Virus record (IMG/VR): IMGVR_UViG_3300016476_000286
Span: 1 to 32,888 of that record
Source of the DNA: a virus
Lineage: Duplodnaviria; Caudoviricetes
Length of the DNA: 32,888 bases
Reading direction: 5' to 3' (one strand)
Shown in pieces: positions 1 through 32,888 of this stretch (within the stretch, counting starts at the first letter, position 1; the number at the start of each line of letters is the position of its first letter). The translations under genes and the position numbers were made by a program. The notes beneath the pieces are model-generated. The model saw only the letters and a program-made list of their open reading frames with translations, searched no databases and was not told the origin of the DNA.

Positions 1-1489
1 GATATTGTGGCTATAAATAGAACTTCGTTAAGAACTTCAACGAGAAAGGCAAGAGGTGTAAATTTTGAGCAAGAGCAGTTAGACCCAAAGCAATACAATA
101 CAACTACTGCAACAAATTTCGGGTTTATTAATGCCGTTGGTTATCCAGATGCTAATTATGTAACACCAAAAGCCGAAAGTATTAATTTCGATGCACCAAA
201 TGTAGTTGCTGATTTGTTTTTTACAATTTACGGCACTCCGTTTAATGCGGCATCGACTACGCACCAAGTTCAATTAACGGCAACTTTGCGTTCAATGTTT
301 TTTCAAGACTTCACAGGTAGCTATACTTATGAAGAAATAACAATACCATATTCGCAAGCAAATCCTTATCAATGGATTTGTGATTTGACTACGAATGGAG
401 GGAATTTTTTAGCGAAATCATTTAGGACTATTTTGCAAACAAATGCAAAAATATGGTTCTTTAATTTCGAGAATTTCACTATTGTACAAGGGGATGTAAT
501 TGCAAAAAAGGCAATTTTGGAATGCTTTAAAGTCGCTAAACTTGATTTAATTGCTAACAATCTTTTGCCTGTTGATGTTAAGATAATTTGGTATGCTGGG
601 GCAAAGTCAATTTATTTTTCAGATGGTGGATTTGAAGACCAATTTGGAGGACAACCAACACCAGCCAACTATTTAAGTTCGCCATATTACAACGATTACC
701 ACAACTATTACATAGGCAACCAAAACAAATCTGTCTTACAAAGACCATTCGACCAATCGGTTTATGATTATTGTGAATTATATCAAGGATTAGCCGTAAC
801 GAATTATTTTAATTCATATAATACGACTACCTATTGGCATAAAATGGCACACCATTACGATATTAATAACAAATTGGTAAAAGAAAGATTAGGCAATAAT
901 CATCAAGTCAATTTGATGTTCTTAATGTTTGAATATTTTGAAATTGTAAGTGGGTCTAATTGGATTACAGGAGTAAGGAAAGCTGCAAATACAAGTGGAC
1001 AAGCAGAAGGTGCAAAGCCAGATATTCCGCCAGATGTAATGCAGTCAATCGGGGCATGGGCATTCGGTTTTGCTGATGGTAATTTGTGGTGGAATTTCAA
1101 TGATTGGGTTATGGAGTTTTACGAAAACTATACCTATCCAACAGGTTATCCTCCAGAGAATTTTAGAAACAATTTTAGCGGAATTGATTGGTATTATTCA
1201 TCTATTGCACAAATGTATCAGAATAGAGATATTTTATCGGCTAATACTGAATGGCAATATGTTCCACAAAGTAAAGGAGGTGGTCAATTTACAAGTGGAA
1301 ATGAAAACTATCCATTTGTTGGATGGGTATTCCAAAGACCTTTGATTTGTGCAAAGTTTAATGTTGCTGGAACGGAAGCATTAGTTTTGGCTATTAATCC
1401 GTTCAATAATGGATATACAAAGACAACTACACAAGTTCAATTAGTTGCTGGGCAAACAATGAGTATCGATATGTTTGGAACGTACACTA
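1..1489 (+). repeat. Terminal direct repeat, copy A (diverged from 31400-32888)
   Basis: Colinear with 31400-32888 at constant offset 31399, no indels; first 77 nt identical; ~125 substitutions by hand count. Confidence 0.97.
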
Positions 1490-4728: not shown

Positions 4729-5682
4729 ATGCCAACAACAACTTCAATTACCACAACTTATGCTGGTAAATATGCTGGAAAAATTATTGCAGCATCATTA
4801 TTGTCTTCTCCTACCATCGACAGAGGTGGTATCGAGGTAAAACCAAATGTTCAATTTAAAGAGGTAATCAAGCGTGTAGCTACTGATGACATCTTAAAGG
4901 ATGGTTCTTGCGATTTTACTGCAACTTCTACCGTTACATTGACCGAGAAAATTTTACAACCAAAAGAATTACAAGTGAACTTGCAACTTTGCAAAAAAGA
5001 CTTCACTTCTGATTGGTTGGCAGTTGAGCAAGGATTTTCAGCTTTCAAAACTTTGCCTTCATCATTCCAAGATTTCTTAATCGCTCACGTTGCTGCTAAA
5101 GTTGCCGCAAAGAACGAGACTAACATCTGGCAAGGTGCTGCCGCTAACTCTGGCGAGTTCAACGGATTTGAGGCTTTATTAGCTGCCGATGCTGCTTTAC
5201 CTTCGGGTCAAGAGATTACAGGTACTACCGTAACTGCTTCAAACGTAATTACCGAGCTTGGTAAAATCGTTGATGCTTTACCATCTTCATTGTACACTAA
5301 AGAAGATTTGCATATCTACGTTTCTCAAAACATCGCTCGTGCTTACGTTCGTGCTTTGGGTGGTTTCGGTGCTTCTGGTTTAGGTGCAAACGGTACAAAT
5401 TCATTGGGTACTCAATGGTACAATAACGGTTCATTATCTTTCGATGGTGTTAAGTTATTCGTAGCCGATGGTATGAGTTCAAATAAAGCAATCGCTACTT
5501 TAAAATCAAACTTATTCTTCGGAACAGGATTGGTTAGCGATATGAACGAGGTTAAAGTAATTGACATGGCTGACATCGATGGTTCACAAAACGTAAGAAT
5601 TGTGATGCGAATGAGTGCTGGTGTACAATACGGATTTGCTTCTGATGTTGTTACTTACGGTATCACTAATTCAGCTAACTAA
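4729..5682 (+). CDS. Major capsid protein
   Basis: 317 aa after protease/scaffold, followed by terminator; TTTYAG..AG, LQVNLQLCKKDF, NLFFGTGL motifs typical of this phage type. Confidence 0.85.
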   Translation: MPTTTSITTTYAGKYAGKIIAASLLSSPTIDRGGIEVKPNVQFKEVIKRVATDDILKDGSCDFTATSTVTLTEKILQPKELQVNLQLCKKDFTSDWLAVEQGFSAFKTLPSSFQDFLIAHVAAKVAAKNETNIWQGAAANSGEFNGFEALLAADAALPSGQEITGTTVTASNVITELGKIVDALPSSLYTKEDLHIYVSQNIARAYVRALGGFGASGLGANGTNSLGTQWYNNGSLSFDGVKLFVADGMSSNKAIATLKSNLFFGTGLVSDMNEVKVIDMADIDGSQNVRIVMRMSAGVQYGFASDVVTYGITNSAN

Positions 5683-5736: not shown

Positions 5737-6264
5737 ATGGCTTGTGATATTTCATTAGGTAGATTAGAACCGTGCAAAACGGGTGTTGGTGGTTTAAAAG
5801 CCGTTTATTTTGTGAATTGGGGGGATGCAACAGGGTACACTTATGACGGTACAAATACTGATGCAATTACTGCCGTAGCTGGCACTCCAACTGCCTACAA
5901 ATATGAAGTAAAAGGTGCTTCATCTTTTGAGCAAACAATCAATTCAAACAGAGATACAGGAACTACGTTCTTTACTCAAACTTTGAATTTAACACTTAAA
6001 AAATTAACGGTCGCAGACCACAAACAAATTAAACTTTTAGCATACGGAAGACCGCAAGTTATCATTGAGGATAACAATGGCAACTTATTCTATGCTGGTT
6101 TATTGCGTGGTATGGAGGTAACAGGTGGCACTATCGTAACAGGTACTGCATTGGGCGATTTGTCTGGTTATACTTTGGTATTAACAGGAGAAGAGCCAAC
6201 ACCAGCGAACTTCATTACAACTACTTTGACAACTGCTGGATTTACAATAGTTCAAGGTTCATAG
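5737..6264 (+). CDS. Major tail tube protein (putative)
   Basis: 175-aa beta-rich Thr/Gly protein after capsid; MACD...PCK..VGGLKAVYF, GTTFFTQTLNL, GYTLVLTGEE. Confidence 0.7.
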   Translation: MACDISLGRLEPCKTGVGGLKAVYFVNWGDATGYTYDGTNTDAITAVAGTPTAYKYEVKGASSFEQTINSNRDTGTTFFTQTLNLTLKKLTVADHKQIKLLAYGRPQVIIEDNNGNLFYAGLLRGMEVTGGTIVTGTALGDLSGYTLVLTGEEPTPANFITTTLTTAGFTIVQGS

Positions 6265-12066: not shown

Positions 12067-13042
12067 AATTGATGTAATTAAGCAACATTTTAATTCCACG
12101 AATCTCGGAATTACAAAATTTTGTTCAGATTTCTTTGATGTGTATGGTTTTAACCAGCCCGAATCAATGAGGAGATGGATGAATAAAAACGATTTGGGAA
12201 ACAAGGCAAGGGTAGAACAAACCGCAAAACCTATTTCAAAAGGCAAAATACAATCATTTGATGTACATTTGCTTGAAAATTACGGCATCCTTGATTCAAT
12301 CGGGCAAGAATATACAAGCTACAAATTACCGCCAGAGTTTAAACGAATTGGAGTTTTATCAGATATTCACTTCCCATTTCATTCGATGGAGGCTTTAATC
12401 CCAGCGATTAAATACCTAAAAGAAAAAGAGATTGATTGCCTTTATTTGAACGGAGATATATTTGATTTTTATTCTATTAGCAGACATGAGAAAGACCCAG
12501 ACCTACGAGATTTTAAGAGAGAGGTTGAAATGTGTAGGGATTTCGTTCAAAAGCTAAAAGATATTTTCCCTAATTGCTTACTTGTTTACAAATTAGGAAA
12601 CCACGAGGATAGGTATGCAAGAAGCTTACAAGTACAAGCCGAAGAGTTTGCCCAGCTTCACGATTTGCAGTTCCATGTTTTCTTTCACTTGGATAGATTA
12701 GGTTATCAAATAGTTGATTCGTGGAGAGGTTGCGAGATTGGCGATTTGTTGGTTATTCATGGACACGAGGGTTTTGGAACAGGTGGTGTAAACCCAAGTC
12801 AAAGTTTATTTAATAAAATGTATTGTAATACTTTAATGGGTCATGTTCATAGGACTACTAATACAATGAAGAAAACAGGTTTTAATAAAGTTATAAATAC
12901 ATATAGTACGGGTTGTTTAACTACATTGACACCTAAATATATGCCTTATAACAACCACAATCACGGGTTCGCATATTTAGAAGTTAACAATGGAATTACA
13001 AAAGTTGAAAATATTATTATTAAAGACGGGAAAATAGTGTAA
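12050..13042 (+). CDS. Calcineurin-like metallophosphoesterase
   Basis: SDIH, NGDIFD, GNHE, HGH, GHVH motifs in order. Confidence 0.88.
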   Translation: MDLKDKIDVIKQHFNSTNLGITKFCSDFFDVYGFNQPESMRRWMNKNDLGNKARVEQTAKPISKGKIQSFDVHLLENYGILDSIGQEYTSYKLPPEFKRIGVLSDIHFPFHSMEALIPAIKYLKEKEIDCLYLNGDIFDFYSISRHEKDPDLRDFKREVEMCRDFVQKLKDIFPNCLLVYKLGNHEDRYARSLQVQAEEFAQLHDLQFHVFFHLDRLGYQIVDSWRGCEIGDLLVIHGHEGFGTGGVNPSQSLFNKMYCNTLMGHVHRTTNTMKKTGFNKVINTYSTGCLTTLTPKYMPYNNHNHGFAYLEVNNGITKVENIIIKDGKIV

Positions 13043-13047
13043 ATTTG
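13040..13047 (+). promoter_or_regulatory. Bacteroidota housekeeping -7 element
   Basis: TAAATTTG matches TAnnTTTG; predicted +1 near 13051. Confidence 0.6.
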
Positions 13048-13050
13048 TAT

Positions 13051-13142
13051 TAGCAACTGCAACTGCTATTTCAAAACATTAACGGCACATCTTATTTATA
13101 AATGGTTGCAGATTTATATTTAATTTGTGCCTTTATTATTTT
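13051..13142 (+). ncRNA. Structured 5' leader: two hairpins with complementary loops (kissing loop)
   Basis: TAGCA/TGCTA stem with loop CTGCAAC; GGCACA/TGTGCC and TATAAAT/ATTTATA stems with loop GTTGCAG. Confidence 0.65.
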
Positions 13143-13637
13143 ATGGAAATTTATGTTAAAGCAAATTGTGAATTTGAGAATTACTTGATAAGCAATTTAA
13201 CAAATGTAAAAAATGAAATTACAGGTAGGATACTTAAACCACAATTAGATAGATATGGTTACAATTATGTAACTTTAAATAAAAATGGCAAGTCGAAAAA
13301 ATTCAAATTGCATAGATTAATGGCAATGACATTTATTAAAAATTTTGAAAATAAAAAAGAAGTAAATCACATCAATGGCATAAAAACTGATAATAGGATT
13401 GAAAATTTAGAATGGGTTACACATTTTGAAAATCAAATGCACAAAACTCTAATGATGAAAAAAACAAGCAAATACATAGGTGTTTGTTTTTATAAGCAAA
13501 CAAAAAAATGGAAATCCCAAATTCAGATTAATAATAAAAAAATCTCTATTGGTTATTTTGATACTGAAATAGAAGCATATAATGCAAGATTAAAATTCGA
13601 AAAAAATAATAGCATTATTAACAAATATATTGTTTAA
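13143..13637 (+). CDS. HNH homing endonuclease (NUMOD4-like N-terminus, HNH, AP2 domain)
   Basis: LHRLMAMTFI, VNHINGIKTDNRIENLEWVT, SKYIGV...KWKSQI...IGYFDTEIEA; very AT-rich. Confidence 0.92.
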   Translation: MEIYVKANCEFENYLISNLTNVKNEITGRILKPQLDRYGYNYVTLNKNGKSKKFKLHRLMAMTFIKNFENKKEVNHINGIKTDNRIENLEWVTHFENQMHKTLMMKKTSKYIGVCFYKQTKKWKSQIQINNKKISIGYFDTEIEAYNARLKFEKNNSIINKYIV

Positions 13638-15450: not shown

Positions 15451-15657
15451 ATGAAAGTAAGAAAGATGAGTTTTTATGCCCAAGTGGCTCAAAGATTAAA
15501 CGAGAGGGGTATCTTGCCCTTCTCGGCAAGAGAATGGAATGTACCATTAGTTCAACGTGTTATCTATGGAAAATCGAAAGACCTTGATGCGATTAAAGCG
15601 ATACAGGAAGTCGCAAAAGAATTCGCAGAAGCTGGGATTCAAATCCCACAACTATGA
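15451..15657 (+). CDS. Small HTH-like DNA-binding protein
   Basis: VAQRLNERGI...WNVPLVQRVI resembles the serine-recombinase 'recombinase' DNA-binding motif. Confidence 0.55.
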   Translation: MKVRKMSFYAQVAQRLNERGILPFSAREWNVPLVQRVIYGKSKDLDAIKAIQEVAKEFAEAGIQIPQL

Positions 15658-15723: not shown

Positions 15724-15891
15724 ATGGATAAAAAGCTAACATACACCGAATGGCATCAACATTTGGCAAAAGAATTAGAAAAGGATTATAGAAAACTTAA
15801 ACTAAAAAGAAATGAAAACATTCAGAGAGTACTTCAACCAAAACCCACAGATATATGTGGAGTACAAGAAGGTAGCATACAACCTAATTAA
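15724..15891 (+). CDS. Hypothetical protein
   Basis: ATG 15724; long overlap with next gene. Confidence 0.45.
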   Translation: MDKKLTYTEWHQHLAKELEKDYRKLKLKRNENIQRVLQPKPTDICGVQEGSIQPN

Positions 15892-16084
15892 TCGTGGATA
15901 CAAGCGATTGTCAAGCAAGTTTATTTTTGAAATTGTACGTTACAATACAAACGTTTCTGGTAATGATGGCTTCAAGATTAACAACATTTACACTGCTGAT
16001 TATGCAAGGCAGTTTGAAAAAGACCACCAACAATATGCTGGATATTTTACCAAAAGATTTGTAAAAGACAAAGAAATTGTTTAA
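15812..16084 (+). CDS. Conserved phage hypothetical protein
   Basis: F..YFNQNP.IY, IFEIVRY, FKINN.YTA.YAR pattern. Confidence 0.7.
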   Translation: MKTFREYFNQNPQIYVEYKKVAYNLINRGYKRLSSKFIFEIVRYNTNVSGNDGFKINNIYTADYARQFEKDHQQYAGYFTKRFVKDKEIV

Positions 16085-16089
16085 TATTG
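16058..16089 (+). promoter_or_regulatory. Bacteroidota-type promoter for replication gene
   Basis: TTTG (16058-16061), 20-nt spacer, TAATATTG (one mismatch to TAnnTTTG). Confidence 0.5.
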
Positions 16090-16096
16090 TAATGTA

Positions 16097-16194
16097 GATG
16101 CCTTCTCACATTATAGCATCAAAGGACTTAAAATGCCTTCATTCAATGAAATCGAAGTGAGAAGCGATGGATTTGTTTGGAGGCTTTTTTATTT
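16097..16194 (+). ncRNA. Structured 5' leader: two hairpins with complementary loops (kissing loop)
   Basis: GATGC/GCATC stem with loop CTTCTCAC; GCCTTCA/TGGAGGC and ATCG/CGAT stems with loop GTGAGAAG. Confidence 0.65.
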
Positions 16195-16977
16195 ATGGAA
16201 AAGGAAGGATTTTATTTCCCACATTTTAGCAACGCAAGGCACGACAGGAAAATTCGCAGATTGCGTTTAGAACTTGGCATTGAAGGATATGGCATTTATT
16301 TTATGCTATTAGAAACACTTCGAGACCAACACGATTTGTCTTATCCATTAGGAGATTTGGACTTGTTAGCCGATGAATTTGGAACAAGTGAGCAAAAAGT
16401 AAGGGTGGTAGTATGCAATTACAATTTGTTTGATGTTGATGAAGACCAAAAGTTTTTTAGTCCTAAATTACTTTTGTATTTAGAACCGTACTTTAGAAGC
16501 AAACAACAACGCATTGAGGCTGGTAAAGCAAGTGCTTTGAAACGAAAGTTAAACGAAAGTTCAACGACCGTTGGAACGACCGTTCAACAAAGTAAAGTAA
16601 AAGAAAGTAAAGTAAATGAAAAAAAAGAAAATGAAAGTAAATCAAATAAAAGTAAATTAAATGATTTTCTTTCAAGTGAGTTTTTTCAGAATCAATTTGA
16701 AAAACTTTGGATTTCTTATGGTCGTAAAGGCTCAAAGCAAAAAGCACTTTTAGAAGTTAAAAAATTAAACGAGGAAGATTTAAAAAACTTTTGCGAATCA
16801 GAGGAACATATTTTAGCTTACGTTGAAAATACAAAGGATGAACCGAAATATCGCAAAGACTTTGAAAGATACATATCCAATAAATATTGGGAATCAGATA
16901 TTTTCAGAAGTCAAAAAGTTGGTAAAATTGGAAAAACTATGCAACTTTACAACAACCTAATTAATAAAGATTTCTAA
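16195..16977 (+). CDS. Replication initiator, DUF4373 (Lin1244/Lin1753-like) N-terminus
   Basis: YFPHFSNARHDRKI..LR..LGIEGYGIYFMLLE; internal iterons; C-terminal FEKLW..Y.RKGSKQKA...YRKDFERYI. Confidence 0.8.
   Translation: MEKEGFYFPHFSNARHDRKIRRLRLELGIEGYGIYFMLLETLRDQHDLSYPLGDLDLLADEFGTSEQKVRVVVCNYNLFDVDEDQKFFSPKLLLYLEPYFRSKQQRIEAGKASALKRKLNESSTTVGTTVQQSKVKESKVNEKKENESKSNKSKLNDFLSSEFFQNQFEKLWISYGRKGSKQKALLEVKKLNEEDLKNFCESEEHILAYVENTKDEPKYRKDFERYISNKYWESDIFRSQKVGKIGKTMQLYNNLINKDF
16541..16662 (+). repeat. Probable replication origin: four AAC-N4-GTT iterons then A-rich AAAGT repeats
   Basis: AACGAAAGTT at 16541 and 16552, AACGACCGTT at 16563 and 16575. Confidence 0.7.
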
Positions 16978-20440: not shown

Positions 20441-20619
20441 AACCAGATTTAAAAGCCAAAAGTATTTACAGAAATGCAATCTTTTTTACAAAAGAACATA
20501 AAATGGCTTATGAGTTATGTTTGTTCATTATCAATTCACACATCAATTATTGTAGAAAGATGGATGACAAAGCATATTGGATAGAAGTCAAAATGGCATT
20601 AGATGCAAACAATAACTGA
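20437..20619 (+). CDS. Small hypothetical protein
   Basis: 60 aa, coupled; weakly resembles 25051 protein. Confidence 0.6.
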   Translation: MKPDLKAKSIYRNAIFFTKEHKMAYELCLFIINSHINYCRKMDDKAYWIEVKMALDANNN

Positions 20620-21073
20620 ACTTGTAGCACTCCATAAGCATTGGATTAAAATTGTCCGAAAATTCGGGGAGTGGCATTATGCCGAAGATATAGTACAAGA
20701 AGCATATCTAAAAGCGTTGAGTTCAAAAAAAGAGATTAATTATGCCTATTTTTACCTAATACTTCGTTCCTTAACGATGAACTTACATAAAGCGAAGGTT
20801 GATAAGGTCGAGATAGAAAACATTCCTGACATCGAAGATATTGAGGAAATAGACATCGAGGAATATACGAAGCCGATAATGGATTTCATTAACACTTGGG
20901 AGGACTATGACAGACTTATGTTTTTGATTTGGGTAAACAAAGGTATCTCAATGCGTAAAATGGCAAGGGAATCTGGCATACCATTTATGAGCATATACAA
21001 CACAATTAGAAATTGTAAAGAAAAAATAAAGCAATGGCAAAAAGAAAATCAAAAGGTCTTGGCGACACGTTAG
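20603..21073 (+). CDS. ECF-like sigma-70 family factor (probable late transcription regulator)
   Basis: Region 2 AEDIVQEAYLK; region 4 HTH ISMRKMARESGIPFMSIYNTIRNCKEKIK. Confidence 0.8.
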   Translation: MQTITELVALHKHWIKIVRKFGEWHYAEDIVQEAYLKALSSKKEINYAYFYLILRSLTMNLHKAKVDKVEIENIPDIEDIEEIDIEEYTKPIMDFINTWEDYDRLMFLIWVNKGISMRKMARESGIPFMSIYNTIRNCKEKIKQWQKENQKVLATR

Positions 21074-30655: not shown

Positions 30656-32888
30656 ATGGCATATTTATCAAAATCAGATGCAATAAATAAGTTGAGCAAC
30701 GGACTAATAGATAACGATTCATTTGCTATCTATACATCTGACAATAACTTTAATAATAACACGATATTTTATACTAATTCGGCAAAGACAATTTTATTGC
30801 CACAAGGGAACTATGTTATCCCTTCAAATTATCGTTCAATTTATATTCAGATTGGCTCAAATGGTAAATTTTCAGCCAATCCAGAATTTTTATTTGCAGC
30901 TACTCCAGATGTTTCATTTGTAGACCAATCGATTTTCAATTATCAAACAAAGACAAGGCAGTCAAGTTTTTCTATAACCAACTGTTCACTTTCAAACGAT
31001 GTTTTGACTGATTCAAATTGGTCGACACCATCTCCTTCGGGTAATCCAAAGCAATGGGTAGTAAACAATGGATTCAGAAATACTTCGGCTTTGACAAATA
31101 TAAATTTGTCGGAAATGAAAGGATTTGATTTAATGATTTATGTTGGTGGTAATACAAGTGGGTATTTTAACGATTTCTTTTCAACCTCTTGCTTTGTTCA
31201 TATTGCCCAAGACCTTAATAGGCAGACAATATTTGTAGAAGGGATTTACAATAAAACGTATTTTTTTAAGCAAGATTATTGGTTTGCAAAACAAAACATA
31301 AATTCGCCAACTTTTTACCGAAGGAATTTAAACATTTTGCCAATAACAAATCAAAGAGGTGCTACGAAGTTTAATGCACATATGAGCCAATATATCCACG
31401 ATATTGTGGCTATAAATAGAACTTCGTTAAGAACTTCAACGAGAAAGGCAAGAGGTGTAAATTTTGAGCAAGAGCAATTAGACCCAAAGCAATACAACAC
31501 AACTACCGCAACAAATTTTGGGTTTATTAATGCCGTTGGTTATCCAGATGCTAATTATGTAACACCAAAAGCCGAAAGTATTAATTTCGATGCACCAAAT
31601 GTAGTTGCTGATTTGTTTTTTACAATTTACGGCACTCCGTTTAATACGGCATCGACTACACACCAAGTTCAATTAACGGCAACTTTGCGTTCAATGTTTT
31701 TTCAAGACTTCACAGGTAGCTATACTTATGGAGAAATTACCGTACAATATTCACAAGCTAATCCTTTTCAATGGATTTGTGATTTAACTACAAATGGAGG
31801 TAATTACTTGGCAAAGGCATTTAGAACAAATTTGCAAACAAATGCAAAGATTTGGTTTTTTAACTTTGAATTATTTACGATTGTACAAGATGATGTAATT
31901 GCAAAAAAAGCAATTTTGGAATGCTTTAAAGTCGCTAAACTTGATTTAATTGCTAATAATCTTTTACCTATTGATGTTAAGATAATTTGGTATGCTGGGG
32001 CAAAGTCAATTTATTTTTCAGATGGTGGATTTGAAGACCAATTTGGAGGACAACCAACACCTGCCAATTATTTAAGTTCGCCATATTACAACGATTACCA
32101 CAATTACTACATAGGCAATCAAAACAAATCGGTTCTACAAAGACCATTTGACCAAGCCGTGTACGATTATTGCGAGTTATATCAAGGTATTGCCGTTTCG
32201 AATTACATTAATTCGTACAATACGACTACCTATTTCCATAAAATGGCACACCATTACGACATTAATAACAAATTGATTAAAGAAAGATTAGGCAATAATC
32301 ATCAAGTCAATTTGATGTTCTTAATGTTTGAATATTTTGAAACAGTTGCTGGTTCTAATTGGCTTACAGGAGTAAGAAAAGCTGCCAATGCAAGTGGACA
32401 ACCAGAAGGTGCAAAGCCTGATATTCCACCAGACATATTGCAATCGGTAGGTGCTTGGGCATTCGGTTTTGCCGATGGTAACTTATGGTGGAACTTTAAT
32501 GATTGGGTAATGGAGTTCTACGAGAATTACGCATATCCAACTGCTTATCCGCCAGAAAACTTTAGAAACAATTTTAGTGCAATGGATTGGTATTATTCAT
32601 CTATTGCACAAATGTACCAAAATAGAGATATTTTATCGGCTAATACTGAATGGCAATATGTTCCACAAAGTAAAGGAGGTGGTCAATTTACAAGTGGAAC
32701 GGAAAACTATCCATTTGTTGGATGGGTATTTCAGAGACCTTTGATTTGTGCAAAGTTTAATGTTGCTGGAACGGAAGCATTAGTTTTAGCAATAAATCCG
32801 TTCAATAATGGATATACAAAGACAACTACACAAGTTCAATTAGTTGCTGGTCAAACAATGAGTATTGATATGTTTGGAACGTACACTA
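30656..32888 (+). CDS. Tail-tip/receptor-binding protein (allele B), runs off the window end; ~752 aa when closed; absent from ORF track
   Basis: ATG 1 nt after upstream stop; open to the end (MAYLSKSDAINKLSNG...); continues as the 1-1515 frame. Confidence 0.88.
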   Translation, partial: MAYLSKSDAINKLSNGLIDNDSFAIYTSDNNFNNNTIFYTNSAKTILLPQGNYVIPSNYRSIYIQIGSNGKFSANPEFLFAATPDVSFVDQSIFNYQTKTRQSSFSITNCSLSNDVLTDSNWSTPSPSGNPKQWVVNNGFRNTSALTNINLSEMKGFDLMIYVGGNTSGYFNDFFSTSCFVHIAQDLNRQTIFVEGIYNKTYFFKQDYWFAKQNINSPTFYRRNLNILPITNQRGATKFNAHMSQYIHDIVAINRTSLRTSTRKARGVNFEQEQLDPKQYNTTTATNFGFINAVGYPDANYVTPKAESINFDAPNVVADLFFTIYGTPFNTASTTHQVQLTATLRSMFFQDFTGSYTYGEITVQYSQANPFQWICDLTTNGGNYLAKAFRTNLQTNAKIWFFNFELFTIVQDDVIAKKAILECFKVAKLDLIANNLLPIDVKIIWYAGAKSIYFSDGGFEDQFGGQPTPANYLSSPYYNDYHNYYIGNQNKSVLQRPFDQAVYDYCELYQGIAVSNYINSYNTTTYFHKMAHHYDINNKLIKERLGNNHQVNLMFLMFEYFETVAGSNWLTGVRKAANASGQPEGAKPDIPPDILQSVGAWAFGFADGNLWWNFNDWVMEFYENYAYPTAYPPENFRNNFSAMDWYYSSIAQMYQNRDILSANTEWQYVPQSKGGGQFTSGTENYPFVGWVFQRPLICAKFNVAGTEALVLAINPFNNGYTKTTTQVQLVAGQTMSIDMFGTYT
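31400..32888 (+). repeat. Terminal direct repeat, copy B
   Basis: Colinear with 1-1489. Confidence 0.97.

Follow-up and report, generated by a model that had tools for sequence, protein, structure and literature searches.

The stretch analysed here, hereafter the window, is 32,888 nucleotides long and represents a near-complete ~33-kb tailed phage in which all genes are oriented on a single strand. Its gene content includes portal, terminase, endolysin, ERF recombinase, a sigma-like protein and a replication-initiator-like gene. The host is likely a member of the Bacteroidota, judging from the TAnnTTTG-type boxes found at operon starts and from the closest cellular-genome matches of the initiator, which are records titled Bacteroidota bacterium and Flavobacterium sp. 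To our knowledge, the timing of replication-gene expression in non-integrating Bacteroidota phages is little understood. No tyrosine integrase was found in 30 records (the window and 29 related ones; 14 of 14 controls were detected), so that, as far as this class of integrase goes, nothing points to a lysogenic state that would require immunity; no recognisable repressor is annotated in the window phage. Among annotated phages the initiator matched only distant Firmicutes sequences at 33-35% identity and DNA matches were those expected by chance, hence no cultured model phage was found.

Elsewhere in the window, a sigma-factor-like gene lies at 20603-21073 (PHROG 1740), and a 68-aa protein is encoded at 15451-15657, with relatives in most of the related records and no Pfam match. 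The two ends of the window (1-1489 and 31400-32888) are 91.8% identical over 1493 nt, a diverged repeat of one gene; mixed strains where a circular genome overlaps itself would explain it, as would duplication of a tail-type gene.

Anatomy of the two leaders

The subject of this analysis is the leader that precedes the initiator; a sister leader precedes an HNH gene. The relevant features are as follows.

13040-13142, plus strand: sister leader, with an exact box TAAATTTG at 13040-13047, hairpin 1 at 13051-13068 and hairpin 2 at 13084-13131
13143-13637, plus strand: NUMOD4-HNH-AP2 endonuclease gene, behind the sister leader
15812-16084, plus strand: upstream gene for a 90-aa protein (PHROG 13625), with the promoter region lying in its 3' end
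16082-16089, plus strand: promoter-like -7 box TAATATTG, one mismatch against TAnnTTTG, sharing bases with the stop codon of the gene before it
16097-16120, plus strand: hairpin 1, 5 bp (GATGC 16097-16101 / GCATC 16116-16120) with a 14-nt loop
16102-16109, plus strand: loop-1 kissing strand CTTCTCAC, complementary at 8/8 positions to 16157-16164
16121-16134, plus strand: A-rich linker of 14 nt, unpaired yet highly conserved, with invariant alignment columns, ending in the AT of a conserved ATG
16133-16270, plus strand: upstream start codon, placed at the hairpin 2 base, with a frame of 45 codons that runs into the initiator gene in a different reading frame; a lead only
16135-16184, plus strand: hairpin 2, terminator-type, -15.3 kcal/mol, with covariation in relatives
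16157-16164, plus strand: loop-2 kissing strand GTGAGAAG, with covariation and perfect pairing in relatives
16185-16194, plus strand: U tract T6ATTT (TTTTTTATTT), the 10 nt before the initiator ATG at 16195
16195-16977, plus strand: replication initiator-like protein of 260 aa (PF14297 Lin1244_N, formerly DUF4373; PHROG 2562, replication initiation protein)

The preliminary description of this DNA had located both hairpins, both loops, the U tract and the ATG, and all of its coordinates proved exact; the 8-bp complement that it claimed between the loops is likewise confirmed at every position. Loop 1 comprises 14 nt (the 8-nt kissing sequence, here termed the code, and ATTATA) and loop 2 comprises 10 nt (AA and the code), with a kissing duplex energy of -10.1 kcal/mol. 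Hairpin 2 is built of a 7-bp base (GCCTTCA 16135-16141 / TGGAGGC 16178-16184, with one G-U pair, 16139-16180), a 3-bp middle, a purine-rich internal loop, a 4-bp inner stem (ATCG 16151-16154 / CGAT 16165-16168) and the 10-nt loop. As T6 follows the base directly, the anatomy is that of an intrinsic terminator, and the earlier remark that hairpin 2 plus U6 resembles one appears sound on the evidence of a GC-rich base with an adjoining U tract. A simple terminator scanner missed this hairpin because it allowed loops of 3-8 nt only. The internal loop (16142-16150 / 16169-16177, UGAA opposite GGAU) is nearly invariant in leaders of the window's type, layout B as defined below, and it is possible that tandem G-A pairs within it bend the hairpin. 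A mini-hairpin in the 5' arm (TTCAT-TCA-ATGAA) was considered as an antiterminator and not adopted, being absent from L170 and the L051 group.

Taken as a nested fold by itself the leader is unexceptional (MFE z = -1.35), because folding programs leave out the loop-loop helix. A two-hairpin descriptor that demands loop complementarity gave one match in the window, the 16097 leader, against a mean of 0.03 in 30 shuffled windows and 0 matches in 3000 shuffles of the intergenic stretch, but it was designed with the finding already known, so the case for the leader rests on covariation among relatives. This strict descriptor missed the 13051 leader, and a relaxed form caught both leaders of the window.

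In Flavobacterium the -7 box extends from -12 to -5, according to passages of PMC9723704. Of 65 leaders, 60 have a sense-strand -7 box upstream of loop 1 at a constant distance, where 0.12 would be expected per 45 nt; the window's own box has one mismatch and falls outside this pattern. Read with the span given above, the window's box predicts a transcription start at ~16094-16096, just upstream of hairpin 1.

The sister leader carries the code CTGCAAC/GTTGCAG and a weak, broken U tract. The preliminary description had held that the two leaders match in size, linker and position, which stands for the layout and for the near-equal sizes (linkers of 15 and 14 nt, second hairpins of 48 and 50 nt in the 13051 and 16097 leaders respectively). 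The likeness of their sequences is near nil; a sequence model search between the two returned E = 4.1 (R1 model). CTGCAAC recurs in 10/10 distinct copies of the HNH-type leader (21 matches), each upstream of a similar nuclease-like gene, and this leader type co-occurs with replication leaders of either layout in six records. Its kiss shows conservation only, with no covariation in this sub-family. A search of viral contigs with the HNH protein gave no confirmed relative, and the family was recovered by DNA pattern instead. The idea that different loop sequences keep the two leaders from cross-pairing holds in so far as possible pairing between them is limited to 2-3 bp; selection for such insulation is unsupported, since CTGCAAC stays constant whatever the code of the replication leader, and cassette inheritance explains the difference without it. 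One 59-kb record (G017, loci L281-L283) combines G018 (100% identity) with a related phage (~78%). It is probably, on this identity pattern, a chimeric assembly, and as joined phages its two same-code leaders are no evidence of coexistence.

Conservation, covariation and gene neighbours

The search for initiator homologues returned 1343, and 162 loci around such homologues were scanned along with the window. The scan gave 107 descriptor matches on the initiator strand and 0 on the opposite strand, in 51 distinct sequences, compared with 1 match in one shuffle of 1.10 Mb. The leaders fall into two main layouts. In layout B, the type of the window, loop 1 has 14 nt and holds the pyrimidine-rich strand, and loop 2, at the tip of a long hairpin, holds the purine-rich one. 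Layout A is its mirror: the polarity is reversed, hairpin 1 is long and hairpin 2 is short.

The loop pairing proposed from the window in the preliminary description covaries once leaders from relatives are aligned. In the alignment of 12 layout-B leaders, 323 of 323 cells across 27 pairs are paired and 14 pairs show two-sided change; 0/500 shuffles reached this level, and slid controls paired at 34-44%. Two-sided changes are seen at 4 of the 8 pairs of the kissing helix and at 4 of the 5 pairs of hairpin 1, the latter being 100% paired in the 12 sequences. This alignment covers 12 of 19 leaders, the 7 of L051 type having been left out (MAFFT misaligned their second hairpin and the anchor missed them), and these 7 are included in the later pairing count. 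In that count, for which leaders were picked without regard to loop complementarity, 20/20 distinct layout-B leaders outside the window pair at 8/8 positions, with 8 codes among them. Locus L130 was set aside as a false anchor, and 5 of 25 DNA-pattern matches lacked the structure. Layout A behaves in the same manner: 46/46 leaders pair 7/7 with the middle 3 nt left unconstrained, one code being common to 25 of the 46, and in an alignment of 27 sequences every kissing position is paired.

At least 14 codes occur across the two layouts, including the natural pair CTCCTTAC/GTAAGGAG. In all 51 distinct descriptor sequences the purine-rich strand opens the helix with GU, and apart from this GU/AC end the loops have few invariant bases. 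Cells with G-U outnumber those with A-C by 14:0 and 36:9, which places the structure in RNA of the sense strand and makes a DNA cruciform unlikely. Every one of the 30 records, the window included, has the leader, 26 by descriptor and the other 4, of layout A, by pattern or by eye. For these whole or near-whole records the descriptor count of 26 compares with 2, 0 and 0 in shuffles, and 5 of the matches in the record scan were of other kinds (4 reverse-strand mirrors of layout-A leaders and 1 low-complexity match on the minus strand of G026). Comparative evidence of this kind supports selection on the loop-loop pairing, and on it we conclude that a conserved kissing-loop leader RNA is real. 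It belongs to no tested family.

When layout-B and layout-A models were run on 151 genomes of the genus of G031 (Flavobacterium sp., L189), a weak test with only 27-28 candidates scored per genome, layout B gave 0 matches; the layout-A model picked out a phage-like contig and 4 plain terminators without a kiss. A third layout was seen upstream of the initiator in L133, L142, L144, L153 and L157, with a short GATG...CATC hairpin 1, an 8-9-nt loop and a long hairpin 2, and its codes include GTCGCAC, GTAGCCG and GTAACGG. Tandem leaders occur in L042, where a layout-B leader (code GCTCTGAC, ~5226-5325) precedes a gene similar to those for HNH proteins in L054 and L071, and a layout-A leader (GTAGGAG, ~5903-5984) precedes the initiator. 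Most layout-A leaders also hold a small GGTT-AAAA-AACC hairpin between the kissing hairpins, for example at ~520-535 of L001.

The 90-aa gene lies upstream of 51 of the 62 loci with a descriptor-called leader. It was not found in four leader-bearing complete records (G003, G008, G019 and G021), and near-identical copies (93-99%) adjoin different codes and layouts; on both counts its product was rejected as an obligatory partner of the leader. A structural model of the protein (pLDDT 87) has its best match, a weak one at Z 5.5, among nucleic-acid-binding helical or helix-turn-helix-like domains; Foldseek returned no match for the model, and an Atlas search gave unnamed viral clusters only. Downstream, the first gene behind layout-B leaders may be the DUF4373 initiator, an HTH_36 protein, an HNH nuclease or a methylase, and among 9 loci traced beyond the first gene, 5 have the DUF4373 initiator in second place. 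This variation fits control of the operon's transcription, and as judged from gene order the leader heads the replication operon and not one particular gene.

Proposed action of the leader

The preliminary description had proposed that the kiss toggles termination or translation of the initiator, and both variants are candidates here, with termination preferred. To the reading that we favour we give an even chance: the leader would be a promoter-proximal attenuator RNA in which the loop kiss delays closure of the terminator and sets read-through into the replication operon. The GC-rich base, the U6, the T-rich tails and the variable distance to the ATG point to an intrinsic terminator at the operon head. 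Tails with at least 7 T in 8 nt are present in 47/51 leaders, in part a product of how the descriptor was constructed, and the distance from stem to ATG spans 10-22 nt, with at least 14 nt in 43/51. For the guanidine-IV (mepA) riboswitch, the sections of PMC11611296 that deal with it describe a 5' loop that kisses the loop of the terminator hairpin, with linker strain opposing completion of the stem. The direction proposed for the attenuator follows from this precedent together with the borderline geometry set out below.

Transcription would start near 16095, making hairpin 1 the first to fold. Loop 2 would emerge from the polymerase ~20 nt ahead of the 3' arm of the terminator, so that the kiss may precede closure. 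Using customary rise-per-base values, a stacked rod of hairpin 1, kiss and hairpin 2 (~33 steps, ~92 A) would be about as long as the 14-nt linker at full stretch (~89-98 A), and with rod length so near the linker's reach the kiss and the closed base would strain each other. Where the base prevails, polymerase would stop in the U tract and an RNA of ~95 nt would be released; the closed base would also cover -11 to -17 of the initiator start region and damp translation. In layout B a ribosome at the conserved stem-base start codon is a candidate for shifting the balance. Were hairpin 2 to bend at its purine-rich internal loop, kiss and full hairpin could coexist and the kiss would then be a stabiliser. 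Against the attenuator reading, the catalogued candidate of Fremin et al. 2023 that likely matches the leader is flagged by RNIE as not a terminator in a table of PMC10690425.

Unlikely, although foremost among the alternatives, is a translation-coupled switch of the IncI/repY kind, in which a closed hairpin 2 base would hide both the start region of the initiator and the start codon at 16133; the kiss would keep that base open, and a ribosome would load there, unfold the hairpin and license translation or read-through. It would account for the ATG or GTG that stands exactly at the base of hairpin 2 in 26/27 layout-B leaders (16133 in the window) behind the invariant A-rich linker, which places A at -3 and at -12, both among the four positions that act positively in F. 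johnsoniae according to PMC6847099. The same source gives the F. johnsoniae start region from -20 to +20 as normally low in structure, with A-12/-13 as determinants; in the window the hairpin 2 base, once closed, overlies -17 to -11, including those positions, and the context of the initiator start lies at the 1.8th percentile of 659 starts from related phages. The upstream frame overlaps the main gene stop-to-start in 2 leaders and is fused to it in frame in 4, and the HNH-type leader, with its broken U tract and 9-11 nt to the ATG, appears to fit translation control better. Taken as a lead, the conserved upstream start codon points to a ribosome-coupled, repY-like variant. The frame itself argues otherwise, being unconserved in length (6 to >100 codons), and so does the middling context of its start, which among true starts ranks only at the 19th percentile for the window's copy and between the 6th and 64th across leaders. 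Of the layout-A leaders only 6/46 show any ATG at the stem base, the stem-to-ATG distances given above speak against a universal role, and no conserved position for an antisense -7 box was found among 65 leaders (20 of 65 have one in ~250 nt, 0.64 being expected per region). Ranked after this, and unlikely as well, is a fixed structure without a switch: the kiss would lock a compact fold that stabilises the ~95-nt RNA or the mRNA 5' end, or would set a constant terminator leak, the RNA perhaps serving as a protein decoy. An intact kiss in every copy read of both layouts, which in layout A turns over more slowly than other stems, is what such a structure would show, as is the lack of an antisense box or third site to compete with the kiss and the identical architecture ahead of unrelated genes. 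What the two layouts of opposite polarity share, on the other hand, is only the kiss-to-terminator geometry and the GU/AC end, which leaves little common surface for a ligand or protein, and the linker reach is borderline for coexistence of kiss and hairpin.

Two further readings bring in action in trans. The broader one, which we hold to be doubtful, is a ligand-free kissing antiterminator that counts its own transcripts: Bacteroidota phages lacking a recognisable repressor would use it to time replication, with terminated ~95-nt copies acting in trans, interchangeable modules defining exclusion groups among co-infecting phages and, in layout B, a ribosome at the stem base locking read-through. 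About as doubtful is a minimal P4-like self-counting RNA, in which the released leader would use its exposed loop 2 to capture loop 1 of new transcripts, block their kiss and increase termination, giving an early burst of replication genes and shutting out later phages of the same code. For P4, PMC4825925 reports that a leader-derived RNA, CI RNA (seqA/seqC), prematurely terminates the replication genes. Among 27 pairs of loci with identical first 118 initiator residues, 7 share the code and 18 the layout (the pairs are not independent), so the code is decoupled from the initiator in the manner of module exchange; ordinary phage mosaicism would explain such exchange equally well. Self-counting further conflicts with the pace of change of the kiss, as turnover of the layout-A kissing pairs was below that of the other stems in all three divergence bins (0 vs 0.079, 0.061 vs 0.175, 0.195 vs 0.289). 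There is accordingly no sign of a fast-evolving address, and a hypervariable code was rejected for layout A. The predominance of one code in layout A and the lack of a tyrosine integrase in the 30 records weigh against self-counting too, as does the absence of a third complementary site, for which 32 leaders gave 84 observed against 88 expected in the same record (4 against 7.6 within 1.5 kb). Highly improbable, finally, is a switch in which a small molecule, an ion or a phage protein such as the 90-aa protein or the initiator stabilises the kiss. The guanidine-IV precedent (PMC11611296), the conserved internal loop and linker of layout B, and the frequent adjacency of the 90-aa gene with its weak nucleic-acid-binding likeness all invite it; the leader-bearing records in which that gene was not found, the near-identical 90-aa copies and identical initiator N-termini beside different codes and layouts, and the near lack of sequence common to both layouts tell against it.

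The attenuator reading lends itself to simple loop-swap designs, the leader being short and furnished with natural code variants. If it is true, such leaders would offer programmable parts for the control of expression in Flavobacterium or Bacteroides.

Comparison with known systems

Rfam 15 gave no match at the window leader (E <= 1) and 0 matches in 18 related loci. In the full-text literature outside subscription papers no paper on this kissing leader was found, and nothing like it is described where Weinberg 2010 (PMC2864571) treats c4 and Bacteroidetes motifs. The leader may nevertheless already be listed anonymously in a published catalogue (PMC10690425), whose tables include DNAVirus_4859, a candidate of 106 nt with 40 sequences (37 from freshwater) lying within 25 nt of HTH_36 (13), Phage_rep_O (7) and DUF4373 (7) genes. 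A single covarying base pair is tabulated for it, without a terminator call; the word 'kissing' does not occur in the catalogue's main text, and neither pairing between loops nor a mechanism is described there. Layout B, at ~97 nt and ahead of DUF4373 and HTH_36 genes, agrees with it in length, habitat and neighbours as far as these are listed; on a comparison by description only, our leader may be this candidate, and DNAVirus_704 is a further one to compare. DNAVirus_187 (49 nt, 122 sequences, 105 from freshwater; PMC10690425) may, on the same partial record, be the second hairpin alone.

A leader without an Rfam c4 family match is also one of the differences from P4 CI and P1/P7 c4, whose likeness to our case consists in RNA-RNA pairing within the leader of a phage, where premature termination controls entry into replication or early genes. 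Here there are only two complementary sites, both within one ~90-nt leader, and none of the 30 records has a tyrosine integrase.

In IncI plasmids an upstream leader-peptide start, repY, is coupled to the initiator. The upstream start of layout B recalls it, and long-range loop pairing in an initiator leader is a further likeness to the IncI/IncB systems. Translation of IncI-alpha/IncB repZ needs a pseudoknot upstream of the ribosome-binding site and is blocked by Inc RNA (passages of PMC8383071). The analogy with IncB/IncI drawn in the preliminary description is partial: no conserved antisense box was found, the distance from stem to ATG varies over 10-22 nt, the second hairpin here is terminator-like and the upstream frame is unconserved.

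The guanidine-IV riboswitch shares with our leader, for which the pairing is read from covariation, a 5' hairpin loop that kisses the loop of a terminator-type hairpin. If it is true that the kiss gates termination without a ligand, the principle would widen beyond guanidine-IV. The leader described here differs from that riboswitch in its freely varying kissing sequence and in its phage replication context, the genes downstream being initiators, HNH nucleases and methylases and in no case a mepA-type exporter.
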